A stretch of 64,000 bases of DNA, taken from NCBI GenBank assembly GCA_050261575.1, contig JBLNDL010000013.1, forward strand, positions 1 to 64,000, in the 5' to 3' direction. This DNA is from Sphingomonadaceae bacterium (GTDB lineage: Bacteria; Chloroflexota; UBA6077). A program made the position numbers. Positions 49,201 through 55,200 of this stretch are shown here, piece by piece. Each line of letters begins with the position of its first letter. The stretch's first letter is position 1.

Positions 49201-52200
49201 GGATCTCCTGGTGGGCATAGTCACCGACACCCTCGGGTTTCGCACCCCCGCGACTTCCGCCCGCACCCTTCGCACCGCCGCGACTCTGATGGAGAGGGGC
49301 GCATCCCTCTCGCTGATCAGCGAACGCGTCTTCAACACTCGATCCCCTCGCACCCTGTGGCTGTGGGGCCGTGTGCTGAGCCGGACTCGGGTGGAAGACG
49401 GGCTGGTGTGGGCCGACATCACCAGCGACATGCTGGCCGAATGCGGCGCAACCCTGGAGGATGCGGACACGCTGGTGGATTTCATCGCCGGGGTGCCTCG
49501 GACGAACGCGGCTTTCCTGTTCAGCGAGCAGAGGGGCAAGGTCCGTGTGAGCATGAGGACGTCGGCCGAGTTGGATGCGGCCGCCTTGGCCAAGAGCTTC
49601 GGCGGCGGCGGACACGCTCGCGCGGCAGGATGCACGCTGGAGGGATCCATCGCCGACGTCCAAGCCCTGCTCCTGGGTGAGGCCCGGCGACGGCTCGGGA
49701 TGGTGGCGAACGGGGGTGAACGGTACCAAGAAAGCGGCTCCTGAGGGCTTCCTTAACGTCTCGAAGCCTTACGGTTGGACGTCCCACGACGTCGTTCAGT
49801 TGGTGCGCCGTCTGACGCGGACCCGACGGGTCGGCCATGCGGGGACTCTGGACCCCGCCGCGACCGGCGTGCTCGTCGTGGCCGTGGGACGAGCGACCCG
49901 GCTGGTAGACTACCTCGGGGAGCAGGACAAGAGCTACTGCGGGGACGTCGTCCTCGGCGCCACTACCACGACGGACGATGCCGAAGGGTCCGTCTTGGGT
50001 GCCCGCGATCCCTCCACCGTGACCCTCGATCAGGTGACCCGGGCCCTGTCTGGCTTCGTCGGCGAAATCGACCAGTTGCCCCCGCAGTACTCTGCCGTCA
50101 AGCTGGAGGGCAAGAAGGCTTACGAGATAGCCCGAAAGGGAGGGCTGGCGGCCGTGAGGCCCCGGCGAGTGACCATCAAGGGGATCGCTGTGGTCGCATG
50201 GGAGCCTCCCATCGTGAGCCTCATGGTACGCTGTTCCAAGGGAACTTACATCCGGAGCCTGGCAAGAGACCTGGGACAGCGGTTGGGCGTCGGTGGCCAC
50301 CTGGGCGCGCTGGTCCGTGTCAGCAGCGGGGTCTTCGACTGTGAGGATGCCATTGGGGTCGAGGATCTGCGACTGGCTGCGGAGTTCGACTATCTGGAGA
50401 AGCTGATCTGGCCGCCAGACGTCGCGGTGGCCCACCTGCCTGCCCTGGTGGTGGCGGAGCGGCATGCCGAGGACATGATGGGGGGGCGGTCGTGGGCGGC
50501 GACATCGCCCCCGCAGGGAACGAAGTCGGTGAGAGTCTACACCACGGAAGGGGTCTTCTTGGGGCTGGCTGAGTTGCGGGAGATGCGCTGGTGGCCGAAG
50601 CTGGTGCTGTTGCCGGAGGAGCAGTGAGTCCACAAGCTGAAGTTGCCACGCCGGAAGCGGTGGCGACCATTGGAGTGTTCGACGGGGTGCATCTGGGTCA
50701 CCAGGCGCTGATCCGCCGCGTGGTGGAGCGGGCCGGGCAGCTTGGGATGGTGAGCGTGTGCGTCACCTTCTCGCCTCACCCGGAGGACGTGCTACGTCCC
50801 GACAGCGGCATCGCCCACCTGGCGGGAGTGGAGGATCGGTTGGCCACCATCAAGGGGCTCGGCGTCTCCGAGGTAGTGGTGATGGAGTTCACCAGTGCCC
50901 TCGCAGCCCTCTCTCCGGAGGAGTTCATCGACCGCTTGATGCAGCGCTTCCGATTGCGGGAGCTGTGGATCGGGAGTGACTTCGCGCTGGGGCGTGGGCG
51001 GACCGGTACCCCGGAGCGCCTGGCAGCCATCGGGAGGGAGAAGGGGTTCGTGGTACGGTCGCTTCCCCCGGTGGAGGTCGATGGGCAGGTGGTTAGCAGC
51101 AGCCGCATCAGGCAACTTCTGGCCGATGGCCAGGTGGAGGAGGCGGCGCGGCTGTTGGGCCGCGCCTACAGGCTGCGGGGGCGCGTCGTCGCGGGCGATG
51201 GCCGTGGCAGAAGCCTCGGCTTCGCAACCGCGAATCTGGCCCCTGACGACCGGCTGTGCGTGCCCGGCGATGGGGTCTACGCGGTCGCCGTGCAAGTGGA
51301 AGGCGGAGGAGAATGGCACGGCGTTGCGAACGTGGGGGTGCGCCCAACCTTCGGCGAAAGCGCGCGCCAGATCGAGATCCACCTGCTAGGCTTTTCGGGC
51401 GACCTGTACGGCAAGAGGCTGGCCGTGGATTTCGTGGCGAGGCTTCGGGGTGAACGGCGGTTCGAGTCTGTGGAGGCCCTGAAAGCCCAGATAGCTGAGG
51501 ACGTGCGGAAGGCACGGTCGATCCTGGGGGAGTCTCCACCCCACAGCGCGAGCGCGCGCAGCGTTGCGCCTTTCCCTTAGGGCGAGGCGATCCGGCATCC
51601 CCTCTCCCTTTGAGAGAGGGTCAGGGTAAGGGCGCAGGCCGTTGGCCGCGTAGACTCCGCATGGTCTCCTGGTCCCCACTCGGTAGCGCGCCCTACACGG
51701 GAGCCCGGGGGGCGCACCAGCGGGCTGCTTTCCGGCCGGTTTTCGGCCTGGCCGTAGGGCTCGGGGCACCCCCCTCCCTTCGGCCCGACGGTATGAGGCC
51801 ATTGCCGTCGTCGACGGCCTATGTTAGCATTATGACCACTTCGCAATACCCTTCGAGTTGATCGTGACTTCCTGAGGGCGGTCCCAAGAGAGGTCCATGG
51901 CTTCGATCATTGCCATCTCCAATCAGAAGGGTGGTGTGGGCAAAACAACCACCACCGCGAACCTGGGTGCTGCGTTCTTCCAGTTGGGCTGCAAGGTTCT
52001 GCTAGTGGACATGGATCCGCAGGCCAACCTGACCACAGCCTTCGGGTTGAACGAGCAGACGGAAACCAGCATCGCGGAGGCGTTGCTGGATCGTAAGGTT
52101 CGGCTCCCCATCACGCCAGGCCCCGAGAACGGCAAGGCACGGCTGGACCTGGTGCCTTCCTCTCTTTCCCTGGCCAGCGCCGAGGCGGCGCTCATGAACA

Positions 52201-55200
52201 AACTGGGCAGGGAGTTGAGGCTGAGAGACCAACTCGCCGCGATAGAGACCCCCTACGACTTCATCCTGATCGACACGCCCCCCTCCCTTGGACTCCTGAC
52301 CATTAACGCCTTGGTGGCCGCCGAAAAGGTTGTGATACCCACCGAGGCGCGGCTGTTCTCCCTGCAAGGCCTTCAGATGATGCAGGATAGCATCGAGGAG
52401 ATCCTCTACCTGAACCCGAAGTTGCAGGTGGCGGGGATACTGCTGAGCAAGCTGGACCGTCGTCTCAAGGAGGAGAAGCTCGTCAGCGCCTACCTCCGGG
52501 AAAGGTGGGGTACTCAGGTATTCGAGACCGAGGTGGGGACCAACAGCAAGATACTGGAAGCCGCGTCATCCGGCACATCCGTATTCAACTACGCCGGTGC
52601 CGAGAAAGCTGCAGAGGCATATCTTTCCCTCGCCAGGGAGGTATTGGCTCGTGGCTAAGCTGCGTGGTGGGTTTGACCCGGGGCGACTGGCGGAACCGGT
52701 CAGGAGCACTCCCGTCATTGGGAAGATCGTGTCCGAGGAGATCGAGGCCGACGCGAAAGGCTTTACCGAGATCAAGATTGTCGGCGTGGGTGGCGGTGGG
52801 AATAACGCGCTCAACCGTATGGTCGAGGCTGGCATCCGAGGTGTGGACTTCATCGCCGTCAACACTGATGCTCAGGCGCTCGACATGTCCTACGCCACTC
52901 GAAAGATCCCGATCGGTGGGAGGGCAATGAAGCGGCTTGGGGCCGGCGGCGATCCCATGGTGGGGGAGCGGGCGGCAGAGATAAGCCGGGACCAACTGGA
53001 GGAGGCGCTGGCTGGCGCCGACATGGTGTTCATCACTGCCGGCATGGGGGGCGGCACCGGAACCGGGGCCTCGCCCGTCATCGCGGAGATCGCCCGGAAG
53101 AACCGCTCGCTGACCGTTGCTGTCGTGACCATGCCCTTTACCTTCGAGGGACGCAGGCGCCGAGAGGTGGCGGAGCAGGGCTTCCAGATCCTCAAGGAGA
53201 GGGTCGACGCGATCATCAGCATTCCCAACGACCGGCTGCTGGCGATGGCCAACAGGAAGATGGGGCTGCTGGAGGCATTCCGCGCCGCCGACAACATCCT
53301 GCGCCAGGGTGTTCAAGGCATATCCGACCTGATCACGGTGACGGGACTGATAAACCTCGACTTCGCCGATGTGAAGACGATCATGACCGGAGCCGGCACC
53401 GCCTTGATGGCGATCGGCGAGGGGAAAGGGCAGGGCCGGGCTCTGCAGGCGGCGCGTGCGGCCATCGACAGCCCTCTGCTGGACATCTCCATCGATGGGG
53501 CGACTGGACTGCTGATCAACATCACCGGCGGACCGGACATGAGCCTGATGGAGGTGAGCGAGGCGGCCAGCCTTATCAGCGAGGCCGCGAGCCCCGAGGC
53601 CAACATCATCATGGGCGCTGTCATCCACCCGAAGCCCCAGTCGGAGTTGCAGGTCACCCTCATCGCTACCGGCTTCGGCGGGGCCGAGGTCCGAAAGCCC
53701 CAGGTGAAGGTGAGCGACGAGTTCGCCAGGCTGGAGATGTCCCAGGGGGAAACGGGTCGCCACGAGCCCGGCGACGTTCGAGAGCACCGGATCCTTGAGC
53801 AGCCCCGTGAACCTCTGGAGCCGTGGGTGGCAAGGGATGGTCGCGAACCGGCGGAACCATGGGAGCCTCGCGAACCTCGAGAACGGGAGCGCCGCGAGTC
53901 ACTGGGGCTGCAGGATCTGGACGTGCCGGCTTTCCTCAGGAAGAAGAAGCCCCAGTAGCACCGCACCGGGAATCGACGGCAAGTAAGAAAAAGAGGCGGT
54001 AGCGCGACGGAGCGCTACCGCCTCTCGTCGATTCGAAGGAGCTACTTCTCTTGCTCCTTTTCCTTCTTGGCCTCGGCGATGACCTGCTGCGCCACGTGAG
54101 CCGGGACTTCTTCGTAGCCCGCGAACTTCGTGGTGAACTTGCCTCGCGCTCCCGTGATGGAGCGCAGGTCCGTTGCGTAGCGGCGGACCTCCGCGTAGGG
54201 GGCCTTGGCCTGGATGGTGGTGAAGCCATCCTCCGGGGTCATCCCCAGCACCTGGGCGCGCTTCCCGTTTAGGTCGCCGATGATGTCCCCCGTGTAGGCG
54301 TCCGGCACGGTAATGGCCATCTCCACGACCGGCTCCAGCAGCACTGGCTTCGCATCCATCGCAGCCTTCTTGAAGCCCATGGAGGCCGCGATCTTGAAGG
54401 ACATTTCGTTTGAGTCCACCGGATGGTAGGAGCCGTCGTACAGAATGGCCTTGACGTCTACCATCGGGAAGCCGGCCAGGACCCCTTCCTGCATCGCCTC
54501 TCGCACGCCCTTCTCCACGGCCGGTATGAAGTTCTTGGGCACGGCGCCACCGACGATCCGGTCCTCGAAGACGAAGTCGCTGCCGCGGGGCAACGGCTCG
54601 AGCTCCAACCAGGTGTCGCCGAACATGCCGTGGCCACCGGTCTGCTTCTTGTAGCGTCCCTGGGCCTTGGCCGATGCGGTGATCGTCTCCCTGTAGGCGA
54701 CCTTCGGCTCGGCGATGTTGACGTCGACGCCGAACTTCCGCTTCATCCGCTCGACGGCGATGTCGATGTGGGATTCACCCATGCCCGACATCAGGGTGTC
54801 GCCCGTTTCGGTGTTCTTCTCGACCCGAAGGGTCGGGTCCTCCTCGGTCATGCGGGTTAGAGCCGGACCGAGCTTGTCGAGGTCGGCCTTGGTCTTGGGG
54901 GAGATGGCGGCCGAGAAGACCGGCTCGGGGAAGACGATGCCGGCCAGTTGCACCGGGTTCTCCTTGGTGGTGATGGTGTCTCCCGTCGAGGTCTCCTGCA
55001 GCTTGGCCACGGCGCCCATGTCGCCCGTAGTGACCCTGGGGACGGGATCCTGCCGCTTGCCCGTGAGCATGTAGAGCTGCCCGATCCGCTCCTCTCTGGC
55101 CCGGTTGGGGTTCCAGATGTGGGAATCGGACTGCAACGTGCCCGAGTAGACCCGGAAGTAGTTGAGCCGGCCGACGTAGGGGTCTGAGACCGTCTTCCAC

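Follow-up and report, generated by a model that had tools for sequence, protein, structure and literature searches.

ParA-Type ATPases and FtsZ Paralogs Related to the Studied Locus

In Caulobacter, the ParA-like ATPase MipZ acts directly on FtsZ as an inhibitor that is tied to ParB at the poles. Magnetospirillum FtsZm is a second bacterial FtsZ and represents a comparable case, and FtsZ1 and FtsZ2 co-exist in archaea and plastids, where only one of the two may carry a membrane-anchor peptide. In the PomXYZ system of Myxococcus xanthus, the FtsZ ring is marked or stimulated by a polymeric cargo whose position is set by the nucleoid-bound ParA-family ATPase PomZ, and PomX activates PomZ via a short N-terminal peptide in which K/R residues are essential (PMC7993993). 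Truncated FtsZ paralogs are described for Hyphomicrobiales in a recent preprint, namely S. meliloti FtsZ2 and A. tumefaciens FtsZ1 and FtsZ3 (bioRxiv 10.1101/2025.09.29.679267), and heterocyst-forming cyanobacteria are reported to have a clade-specific conserved N-terminal FtsZ extension that matters for function (PMC6175996).

The window analyzed here, a 64,000-nt stretch of an uncultured genome from the Chloroflexota order UBA6077 (C13:1-64000, coordinates used without offset), encodes a ParA-family ATPase, named ParA2, together with a second FtsZ, named FtsZ2. Like PomXYZ, the pair is proposed to combine a ParA-family ATPase with a polymeric cargo bearing a short N-terminal activating peptide (PMC7993993); however, no PomX/PomY-like adaptor gene lies beside parA2, the candidate peptide is on the FtsZ paralog itself, and ParA2 is closest to Soj. 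ParA2 would share with MipZ a dedication to FtsZ control in hosts without Min, but its gene adjoins that of a second FtsZ, it has been kept in a genome that has no ParB, and it matches the Pfam MipZ model weakly and partially, at 38.4 bits. It has the fold family, size, deviant Walker A motif and conserved R189 of the Soj/ParA ATPases of ParA-ParB-parS systems, whereas no ParB gene adjoins parA2 at the window locus and the genome has a separate soj-parB on contig C5. As in Hyphomicrobiales, the second FtsZ lies outside the dcw cluster, and the linker and C-terminal peptide, often lost there, are lost in two of the Chloroflexota classes discussed below (C and E); in contrast to FtsZ2, the Hyphomicrobiales paralogs have no reported ParA partner and no reported common N-terminal peptide in the preprint passages considered (bioRxiv 10.1101/2025.09.29.679267). 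The co-existence of two FtsZ paralogs recalls archaea and plastids by analogy, although both copies in the order of the window carry the anchor peptide. The cyanobacterial peptide is likewise clade-specific and conserved, a likeness by description, but it is found on a single essential FtsZ, affects polymerisation and has no operonic ParA in that description (PMC6175996).

Organization of the parA2-ftsZ2 Locus

The parA2 gene (51897..52658, plus strand) encodes a 253-aa deviant-Walker-A ATPase of Soj/ParA type (Pfam AAA_31, 9.5e-53) and is followed on the same strand by ftsZ2 (52651..53958, stop included), which encodes a 435-aa FtsZ paralog (TIGR00065, 394.9 bits with a cut-off of 295.2) read from a GTG at 52651 within a longer ORF (52597..53958, 453-aa frame). 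Both genes are found where the first-pass annotation had placed an ATPase and a second full-length FtsZ; however, they overlap by 8 nt rather than by 4 (GTGGCTAA, 52651..52658, plus strand, comprising the ftsZ2 start GTG and the parA2 stop TAA). A Shine-Dalgarno-like GGGAGG can be read within the parA2 3' end (52635..52640, plus strand), approximately 10 nt 5' of the ftsZ2 GTG. We infer translational coupling at this overlap, and parA2 and ftsZ2 probably constitute a chromosomal, translationally coupled two-gene operon.

The upstream neighbor of parA2 in the ORF list is a ribF-like ORF (50591..51580). The 316-nt intergenic region between them (51581..51896, plus strand) is the presumed promoter region; it contains no match to a sigma-70-like consensus, with 0.4 expected, and thus the parA2 promoter was not located. 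Downstream, ftsZ2 converges with a gene for a 709-aa EF-G-like protein (54042..56171, minus strand), and a GC-rich hairpin with a 15-bp stem separates the two (53991..54026, minus strand). It is terminator-like for the EF-G-like gene and possibly two-way; since three terminator-like sites were found with 1.9 expected from shuffles, this evidence is weak by itself. A single 216-nt contig from a soil metatranscriptome spans 52735-52950 with one mismatch, a weak hint of ftsZ2 expression that could also stem from DNA carry-over.

Family Assignment of ParA2

The closest solved structures of ParA2 are ParA (8RAY, 2e-48) and Thermus Soj (1WCV, 1.4e-41), with Helicobacter Soj also near, whereas the MinD structure 1ION matches at 3.3e-13. 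Thus, of the earlier 'MinD/ParA-type' label the ParA half holds and the MinD half does not: ParA2 is, by its sequence matches, of Soj/ParA type and not of MinD type. Residues K11, K16, D38, D40, D126, and R189 are invariant among 19 aligned sequences, and R189, which aligns with the G-R of Thermus Soj, presumably occupies the position of the DNA-binding arginine of Soj. ParA2 is probably nucleoid-binding. It shares 43% identity with the Soj that the same genome encodes beside ParB on C5, and its orthologs (53-91% identity) are cleanly separated from Soj-type matches (40-47%); in the ParA2 tree the deep nodes are unresolved, and the Soj sequences that root it attach by a very long branch. In one genome with ParB (G130), ParA2 is the sole ParA, and in the complete 2.1-Mb genome G074 we found no ParB candidate and no ParA besides ParA2 at E<=1e-10, so that ParA2 was kept where Soj and ParB were lost.

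Domain Architecture of FtsZ2

The Pfam Tubulin and FtsZ_C domains of FtsZ2 (residues 58-218 and 267-360 of the 453-aa frame) form a globular core of GTPase domain and FtsZ_C (residues 41-344, 52771..53682, plus strand), modeled by AF2 with pLDDT >90. Its GGGTGTG and NLDFAD (T7 loop) motifs are intact; with all GTPase and polymerisation motifs kept, FtsZ2 is predicted to be a catalytically intact FtsZ. The core is followed by a disordered E/R/P-rich linker of 78 aa (residues 345-422, 53683..53916, plus strand, pLDDT <50), which had been called acidic and proves to be of mixed charge (20 D/E versus 15 K/R, with 9 P), and by a C-terminal peptide of the FtsA/anchor-binding type ending D-L-D-V-P-A-F-L-R-K-K-K-P-Q (53917..53955, plus strand).

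The canonical ftsZ1 lies on a separate contig (C26:20292-21278), is preceded by ftsA and is followed by a laccase-domain gene, which we take to be pgeF-like (its Tsukamurella counterpart is annotated pgeF), and by one more ORF, presumably YggS-like. The 54% identity of the two proteins claimed previously was reproduced over residues 34-361, and D-V-P-A-F-L-R indeed ends both copies. The FtsZ2 proteins of classes C and E (342-347 aa) stop right after the core without linker or C-terminal peptide. The FtsA-type peptide is thus kept in three of five classes, and it is dispensable in FtsZ2 and not a hallmark of the family.

The opposite terminus is conserved. An N-terminal extension (residues 1-40, 52651..52770, plus strand), as the first-pass annotation had noticed, is missing from FtsZ1 and is borne out by an alignment of 18 sequences from five classes and by alignment starts, at query residues 2-7 for FtsZ2 orthologs versus 19-40 for FtsZ1-type matches. 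The window protein carries G-G-F-D-P-x-R-L (residues 6-13, nt 52666-52689) and then R-x-x-P-V-I-x-K-I-V; the family consensus at the extreme N-terminus is G-F-[DN]-P-x-R-[LMV], then R-P..V-V-P-R-I-L, where G7, F8, P10, and R18 are invariant and R12 and I26 occur in at least 90% of the sequences. Judged by this alignment, the extreme N-terminal peptide is the hallmark of the FtsZ2 family. AF2 models the extension at low confidence as mostly unstructured (pLDDT 47-62). The first 20 residues are not uniformly basic (K+R 3-5 versus D+E 1-5), and the motif is unlike the L-G-R-G-L type of ParB. We propose the extension as a candidate ParA2-contact peptide.

Distribution and Linkage of the Gene Pair

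Two or more FtsZ matches are present in 30 of the 38 other UBA6077 genomes, the eight genomes with a single match being 57-83% complete; among 27 genomes from other orders of the class, one has two full copies (G045), two have a second fragment and one has none. These counts, which take in the unpublished genomes G019 and G047, agree with those reported earlier. ParA2 orthologs were absent from all 22 genomes sampled in the class's other orders, but they were identified in four further Chloroflexota classes (87/98, 15/21, 5/5, and 5/6 genomes). Thus, the view of an order-wide pair stands in that the pair is kept throughout UBA6077, but judged by these orthologs it was too narrow: the pair occurs in five classes and is not an invention of UBA6077. 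All carriers seen are uncultured MAGs, and we found nothing in print on the pair.

All 57 loci examined hold both ParA2 and FtsZ2. The ATPase gene lies directly upstream of ftsZ2 in all 29 loci fetched within the order, which extends the earlier observation, and adjacency was shown for 9/9 (one of them, L061, from the unpublished G196) and then 14/14 further loci outside the class; in five more (L132-L136) the two genes lie within 3.1-3.2 kb. The genes overlap by 8-26 nt in 44 of 47 pairs from five classes and by exactly 8 nt in 31, lengths that depend on the start-codon rule applied. Comparison of the window (44-62 kb) with 14 out-of-class 11-kb loci revealed only parA2 and ftsZ2 in common, and therefore the unit is the pair; no third conserved gene, such as an adaptor or a centromere-binding protein, accompanies it in these 14 loci. 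None of the 66 genomes of the class encodes MinD, whether or not the module is present. Module and Min thus do not follow a complementary distribution, and in the sister orders cells divide without either of them.

Possible Function of ParA2 and FtsZ2

We tentatively favor, at somewhat less than an even chance, a mechanism in which nucleoid-bound ParA2 positions FtsZ2 polymers through the N-terminal peptide. ATP-bound ParA2 dimers on the nucleoid would bind this peptide, and FtsZ2 polymers, presenting many copies of it, would act as both cargo and ATPase activator, as do ParB, MinE, PomX, and McdB. The chromosome would thereby serve as the reference for placing, or confining, the FtsZ2 assembly, and FtsZ2 would then seed or modulate the FtsZ1/FtsA ring; in classes C and E, where FtsZ2 has no C-terminal peptide, membrane attachment would need FtsZ1. 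The ParA2-FtsZ2 pair may thus be a self-positioning cytoskeletal module. This reading draws on the co-occurrence and overlap of the two genes, on the N-terminal peptide shared by five classes and on the retention of ParA2 in the absence of Soj and ParB; against it stand the composition of the peptide and its unlikeness to the ParB motif, the distribution of Min, the moderate support for FtsZ2 monophyly and the poor depth resolution of the ParA2 tree.

The precedent of MipZ, a ParA-family ATPase acting directly on FtsZ, suggests another role, in which ParA2 is a MipZ/MinCD-like negative regulator that inhibits polymerisation of FtsZ1, of FtsZ2 or of both over the nucleoid or at the poles, and FtsZ2 is an assembly-tuning regulatory subunit, like the truncated rhizobial paralogs, rather than positioned cargo. 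The truncated FtsZ2 of classes C and E and the lack of a Min system in the class fit this role, and Hyphomicrobiales paralogs perturb division if overexpressed, according to the preprint (bioRxiv 10.1101/2025.09.29.679267). We nevertheless regard it as unlikely, as it leaves unexplained both the conserved peptide on FtsZ2 only and the one-to-one coupling in 57/57 loci, and ParA2 matches the Pfam MipZ model weakly and only in part (38 bits versus 179 for AAA_31).

Alternatively, the pair could act outside cytokinesis, with ParA and a tubulin-type filament placing or segregating DNA or a compartment, or serving an envelope or cell-shape function, as with TubZ and CetZ. The location of ftsZ2 away from the dcw genes with non-conserved flanks, the existence of sister orders without the pair and the retention of ParA2 after ParB loss are consistent with such a role; however, the score of FtsZ2 is that of a bona fide FtsZ (395 bits), its identity to division FtsZs is 54-63%, it keeps the FtsA-type peptide in three of five classes, and no conserved adaptor or centromere-binding gene lies beside the pair, which makes this role rather improbable compared with positioning of FtsZ2 by ParA2.

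Origin of FtsZ2

In the reconstructed trees, the module FtsZ2 all fall into one paralog group next to the Chloroflexota FtsZ1 as a whole, the support for their monophyly being moderate (SH-aLRT 85 in one tree, 76/88 in another), and the duplication is placed within the FtsZ clade of the Chloroflexota (97* and 98/97*); its origin is therefore separate from that of archaeal and plastid FtsZ1/FtsZ2. A plasmid-borne Sinorhizobium ftsZ (340-aa) groups with Proteobacteria in the outgroup, and thus the Hyphomicrobiales duplication is independent as well. The idea that the duplication arose in UBA6077 and characterizes it, giving a second independent Z-ring system, draws on the two copies in 30 of 38 order genomes and on the absence of the pair from the remaining orders of its class. 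We consider it highly improbable, since orthologous pairs exist in four other classes, the FtsZ2 of the order is sister to class-B FtsZ2 (95/94) and does not group with its FtsZ1, which joins the single-copy FtsZ of the class (96/92), and the AU test rejects a single clade made up of the order's FtsZ2 and FtsZ1 (p 0.0029, for a clade named after the first tree was seen). The trees thus show FtsZ2 to be an old FtsZ paralog that originated outside the order of the window. Function is deduced solely from gene order and conservation, which would also suit mere neighborhood by descent with the overlap as a frozen accident, but such neighborhood, or a second FtsZ arising as a binning artifact, is hardly credible, as the linkage is kept across five classes although none of the flanking genes is the same, and the composite-MAG concern raised earlier is removed by genomes that carry both FtsZ genes on a single contig: G021, from the same order (C1:737972 and C1:1810398), and G130, G313, and G086, each of which consists of one contig.

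Organization of the parA2-ftsZ2 locus

The gene for a 253-aa P-loop ATPase, parA2 (positions 51897..52658, forward strand), ends in a TAA stop at 52656-52658 and runs into ftsZ2, which is read on the same strand as a 435-aa FtsZ paralogue from a GTG at 52651 within the open frame 52597..53958. The overlap of the two genes, put at four bases in the first-pass annotation, in fact comprises eight (GTGGCTAA, 52651-52658), and a Shine-Dalgarno-like GGGAGG can be read ahead of the GTG at 52635-52640 (forward strand). The pair is preceded by truB-like and ribF-like ORFs and followed by a convergent 709-aa EF-G-like gene, all named from reading their translations, with a 15-bp hairpin between ftsZ2 and the EF-G-like gene; a scan of the region for a sigma-70-like promoter gave no match. 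An ftsZ gene typically, though not obligatorily, closes the dcw cluster and adjoins ftsA; ftsZ2 lies between the ribF-like and EF-G-like genes and not beside ftsA. Evidence for expression comes from a single 216-nt metatranscriptome contig over 52735-52950, from only one run and covering a small share of the stretch; the uncovered parts are uninformative.

The genome (G000; 3.72 Mb in 103 contigs, rated 100% complete and 4.76% contaminated), whose contig C13 supplies the window as positions 1-64000, has exactly two FtsZ genes by six-frame search, ftsZ2 and one on contig C26 (20292-21278), whose products are 54% identical. The latter encodes FtsZ1 (362 aa), after a 409-aa FtsA and ahead of a laccase-domain gene, which we take to be pgeF-like, and a further, presumably YggS-like ORF; this is how the dcw cluster usually ends. 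Both FtsZ proteins carry D-V-P-A-F-L-R with basic residues at the C-terminus. No SepF was found in G000. Among ATPases, the genome encodes a canonical soj-parB pair on contig C5, whose Soj is 43% identical to ParA2, and other ParA-like matches comprise response-regulator fusions, a tyrosine autokinase, and a 260-aa ATPase (weak family matches only). The highest MinD-model score in G000, 86 bits, falls short of the family cut-off of 212.9; the best matches to that model, all far under the cut-off, are MinD/CpaE-like ATPases joined to response-regulator receiver domains (438 aa) on contigs C50 (53410-54135; locus L005, 1039-2352) and C35 (13787-14518).

Distribution of the module in Chloroflexota

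A second FtsZ beside the ATPase had been described as an order-wide feature of UBA6077, and the wider comparison bears this out: 31 of the 39 genomes of the order, G000 included, have at least two FtsZ matches, and in 29 of 29 loci the ParA2 gene immediately precedes ftsZ2. The eight single-match genomes are 57-83% complete, and two of them (G006 and G022) hold only the FtsZ2 type. Among 27 genomes from the sister orders of the same class, 23 have a single FtsZ copy, one has two full copies (G045), two have fragments, and one has none.

The search with ParA2 covered 401 sampled genomes of the phylum and was bimodal, with orthologues at 53-91% identity (E 1e-80 to 1e-127) and Soj-type matches at 40-47% (E 1e-59 or weaker). 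No orthologue occurred in 22 sampled sister-order genomes, where the best match had an E-value of 6e-57. Searches centred on the carriers defined four further classes, labelled B to E here. ParA2 is encoded in 87 of 98 genomes of class B (that of genome G130) at E<=1e-70, including 63 of the 64 high-quality ones, in 15 of 21 genomes of class C (that of G132), where one family has it in 0 of 5, in all five genomes of class D (that of G089), and in five of six of class E (that of G090). The genomes counted include the unpublished G019, G047, G196 (locus L061), G100, G221, G308, and G371. At loci from these classes, an FtsZ aligning from residue 1-8 directly follows ParA2 in 9/9 and 14/14 cases, and in five more both genes lie inside 3.2 kb. 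Of 47 gene pairs scored under our own start-codon rule, 31 show an overlap of exactly 8 nt between the ftsZ2 GTG start and the ParA2 stop, 13 an overlap of 11-26 nt, and three none. Linkage of the two genes is strict, and start and stop overlap in most loci. No third conserved gene is common to the window (44-62 kb) and 14 out-of-class loci of 11 kb. Look-ups of ten ParA2 proteins by exact sequence returned only metagenome-assembled genomes named "Chloroflexota/Chloroflexi bacterium", and the same is true of every named match among the best 120 of 761 ParA2 homologue clusters.

Phylogeny and origin of FtsZ2

A quick tree of 93 FtsZ cores (297 columns, LG+C20, SH-aLRT only) separated 86 Chloroflexota rows from seven others (Escherichia coli, Legionella, Bacillus, Subdoligranulum, Tsukamurella, Nonomuraea, and a short plasmid-borne copy from Sinorhizobium) with a support of 97; within Chloroflexota, the 36 module FtsZ2 proteins fall on one side of a branch (85) and the 50 FtsZ1 or single-copy rows on the other (84). 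A more careful tree of 46 rows (LG+G4), thinned within each group by our own choice of rows, again places the module FtsZ2 proteins in one group (76/88), in which those of UBA6077 (98/95) are sister to those of class B (union 95/94); the FtsZ1 proteins of UBA6077 (100/93) group with the single-copy FtsZ of their class (96/92). Forcing FtsZ2 and FtsZ1 of the order into one clade costs 63.6 log-likelihood units in the AU test on the same 46 rows (p-AU 0.0029), with two caveats: the model is LG+G4, and this grouping was chosen with the first tree already in hand. The duplication thus predates the order, and the first reading of the pair as peculiar to the order is not supported, given the same pair in four other classes and the sister relation with class B.

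The class-B FtsZ1 proteins do not group with those of the window's class in the 46-row tree, which suggests that a class-B-like lineage may have passed the pair to the ancestor of UBA6077 by transfer. Descent from a common ancestor, with loss in the sister orders, is a possible alternative origin. The ParA2 tree recovers shallow groups as in the FtsZ tree (class C, 97; class E, 100; three class-B families, 99); its deep nodes are without resolution and its Soj root branch measures 2.78 changes per site, and it therefore does not date or root ParA2.

The ParA2 ATPase

ParA2 matches Pfam AAA_31 (9.5e-53) and CbiA, and its closest solved structures are the ParA family protein 8RAY (2e-48), Thermus Soj (1WCV, 1.4e-41), and Helicobacter Soj, with a MinD structure matched only at 3e-13. 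It carries the deviant Walker A motif N-Q-K-G-G-V-G-K-T-T of Soj/ParA proteins (residues 9-18) together with the Walker A' and B aspartates, and has the build of type Ib proteins, at about 250 aa and with no N-terminal DNA-binding domain. The residues K11, K16, D38, D40, D126, and R189 are invariant in 18 ParA2 proteins and the Soj of G000, and R189 aligns with the G-R of Thermus Soj, where the arginine is presumably needed for non-specific DNA binding. Of the "MinD/ParA-type" label in the first-pass annotation, the ParA half is retained on the strength of the structures and the Walker A motif; the MinD half is dropped, as ParA2 scores 55.5 bits on NCBIfam minD_bact against a cut-off of 212.9, and its alignment with Soj reaches residue 252 of 253, which leaves no room for a MinD-type membrane helix. 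These features are the reason for the name ParA2. A Pfam MipZ match is partial (residues 4-152, 38.4 bits) and lies under the far stronger AAA_31, and the NCBIfam ParA_partition model gives 113 against a cut-off of 180.

No ParB is encoded beside ParA2 in any locus examined. On sequence grounds, ParA2 is thus classed as a Soj-type ATPase without an adjacent ParB, and it probably binds DNA. The class-B genomes G313, G327, and G355 have soj-parB alongside ParA2. In G130, a single contig of 3.0 Mb, ParB is present and ParA2 is the sole ParA at E<=1e-10; G074, a single contig of 2.1 Mb (96% complete), keeps ParA2-FtsZ2 and has no ParB candidate and no Soj. ParA2 therefore survives without ParB.

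The FtsZ2 protein and its N-terminal extension

FtsZ2 scores 394.9 bits on NCBIfam TIGR00065 (ftsZ; equivalog cut-off 295.2) and contains the Pfam domains Tubulin (1.4e-46) and FtsZ_C (1.7e-32). The tubulin signature GGGTG[ST]G and the T7-loop N-[LV]-D-F-A-D, with its catalytic Asp, occur in 48 of 48 FtsZ2 proteins parsed; the catalytic motifs are intact in both members of the pair. In an AlphaFold2 model based on a 20-row alignment (mean pLDDT 78.6, pTM 0.70), most of the core (residues 41-344) exceeds 90, the N-terminal stretch 1-40 stays at 47-62 and contains two short helices, and the linker (345-422; 20 D/E, 15 K/R, and 9 P in 78 residues) is below 50.

The C-terminus of the window's FtsZ2 (..DVPAFLRKKKPQ) resembles that of FtsZ1 and provides a putative FtsA- or anchor-binding peptide. 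A linker followed by D-[ILV]-P-[AS]-F-L-R-R-R is present in FtsZ2 of UBA6077, class D (G089), and most class-B families parsed. In the proteins of class C (10 parsed, 342-343 aa) and class E (two parsed, of 342 and 347 aa), only a few residues follow ..A-T-G-F, and this peptide is lacking. As the C-terminus varies, the family is defined by the GTPase core, the N-terminal peptide, and ParA2, not by the FtsA-binding tail. Masked bases, read as X, stand near the C-terminal end of FtsZ2 in one genome (G020, contig C23; loci L031/L055) and hide its length and tail.

In UBA6077, FtsZ2-type matches begin at query residue 2-7 and FtsZ1-type matches at 19-40. The first ~45 residues of 18 FtsZ2 proteins from the five classes share the consensus M-x(2-7)-R-G-G-F-D-P-x-R-L-x(4)-R-P-x-P-V-V-P-R-I-L-x(7)-A-x-G-F-T-E-I-K, in which the motif starts within about 5-10 residues of Met1; G7, F8, P10, and R18 are invariant, and R12 and I26 occur in at least 90%. 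The extension is the hallmark of the FtsZ2 family. A profile of the peptide, run against 1.84 billion representatives, gave 36 matches at E<=1e-3, most of them fragments of 55-215 aa matched at their N-terminus, with no clear second protein family carrying the peptide among them; these 36 matches are not a census, since full-length FtsZ2 proteins seem hidden under other cluster representatives.

Proposed mechanism and relation to known systems

Bacterial cell biology knows two great self-organising systems, the ParA/MinD ATPases and FtsZ, and in every studied case that we know of the link between them runs via adaptors or inhibitors. Proteins that activate ParA/MinD ATPases vary widely in architecture; for activation, 20-22 residues from the N-terminus of Spo0J, MinE, or PomX suffice, and PomZ on the nucleoid positions a polymeric cluster that recruits FtsZ (PMC7993993). 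Such peptides form a functional class and not a sequence family; like them, the FtsZ2 extension is short, conserved, located at the extreme N-terminus, supplied with conserved arginines, and flexible, and it is predicted to activate the ATPase. We envisage that ParA2-ATP dimers on the nucleoid would bind the FtsZ2 peptide, that multivalent FtsZ2 polymers would trigger ATP hydrolysis by ParA2 and so become positioned, and that positioned FtsZ2 would act on or with FtsZ1. We give this mechanism as a whole slightly less than half of our confidence. Against it stand the net charge of the peptide, which is not always positive, and the failure of Min complementarity as an argument: MinD is missing above the family cut-off from all 66 genomes of the window's class, with or without the module. 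A predicted complex of two ParA2, two ATP, and FtsZ2 residues 1-44, built from our own alignments, had a score of 0.15 (mark 0.32) and counts neither for nor against binding.

Slightly more tentatively, we suggest that FtsZ2 could bear its own ParA-activating peptide, so that the two proteins would by themselves make up a minimal system, with a tubulin-family filament serving as cargo and also as activator of a nucleoid-bound ParA ATPase, without an adaptor such as ParB, PomX/Y, or MinC; such a system would be older than the divergence of at least five classes of Chloroflexota, and would have come to the ancestor of UBA6077 by inheritance or from a class-B-like lineage.

Both FtsZ paralogues and orphan ParA positioning ATPases are known kinds of protein; we found neither a fixed ParA-FtsZ gene pair nor an N-terminal peptide on FtsZ in print, and the full-text literature searched (outside subscription journals and supplements) holds no description of a ParA-FtsZ pair or of an FtsZ duplicate in Chloroflexota. 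In the parts available, a survey of the FtsZ/tubulin family refers to Chloroflexota only for the relationship with CPR and for CetZ-like sequences in Dehalococcoidia (PMC9871819). A taxonomic study of Chloroflexota treats UBA6077 as a basal lineage of Dehalococcoidia that has dcw genes; TIGR00065 was part of its screen, and the passages available make no mention of copy number (PMC10608941). A 2025 preprint reports "at least five independent duplications" of bacterial ftsZ, often truncated, and the word Chloroflex is absent from its available text (10.1101/2025.09.29.679267). With a ParA gene and a peptide-bearing FtsZ paralogue kept as a fixed overlapping pair in five classes, the scope shifts from an oddity of one order to an old module of the phylum. 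The pair offers a very simple, directly testable model of a ParA gradient placing a cytoskeletal polymer, a natural bacterial two-FtsZ system whose anchor peptide is kept or lost by lineage, and a marker with which to follow how little-known, uncultured classes of Chloroflexota have evolved.

Other FtsZ copies in the compared genomes

In the phylum sample, many families that lack ParA2 (f28, f33, f37, f43, f23, and others) have two or three FtsZ matches; they include complete genomes of 1.4-1.9 Mb in f33 and, in f37, one copy within an open frame of ~500-590 aa. Such copies are duplicates or fusions of another kind and have no relation to the module. Three FtsZ homologues are encoded in G090 of class E (C30, 42315-43256; C16, 32898-34067; C40, 6755-7768), namely the module FtsZ2 and two FtsZ1-like copies at different places in the tree; with contamination given as 9%, this may be a mixed bin. 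In two genomes of UBA6077, G012 (C238, 13412-14599) and G013 (C20, 235296-236483), FtsZ1-type matches continue through one TGA and one TAG in open frames of 683-686 aa; the alignment may extend into the tail or the following gene, or the gene may be broken or recoded.

The sole sister-order genome with two full FtsZ copies, G045 (C653, 8227-9174; C242, 188-1129), carries as its extra copy a long-branched, divergent relative of its own FtsZ, which the 93-row tree does not place with the module FtsZ2 and which has no link to ParA2. The plasmid-borne copy from Sinorhizobium sp. B11 (locus L141; plasmid p1, 2051212-2052234) is annotated as a 340-aa ftsZ, has neither linker nor tail, and sits on a long branch of 0.9; it is of the known rhizobial truncated paralogue type.
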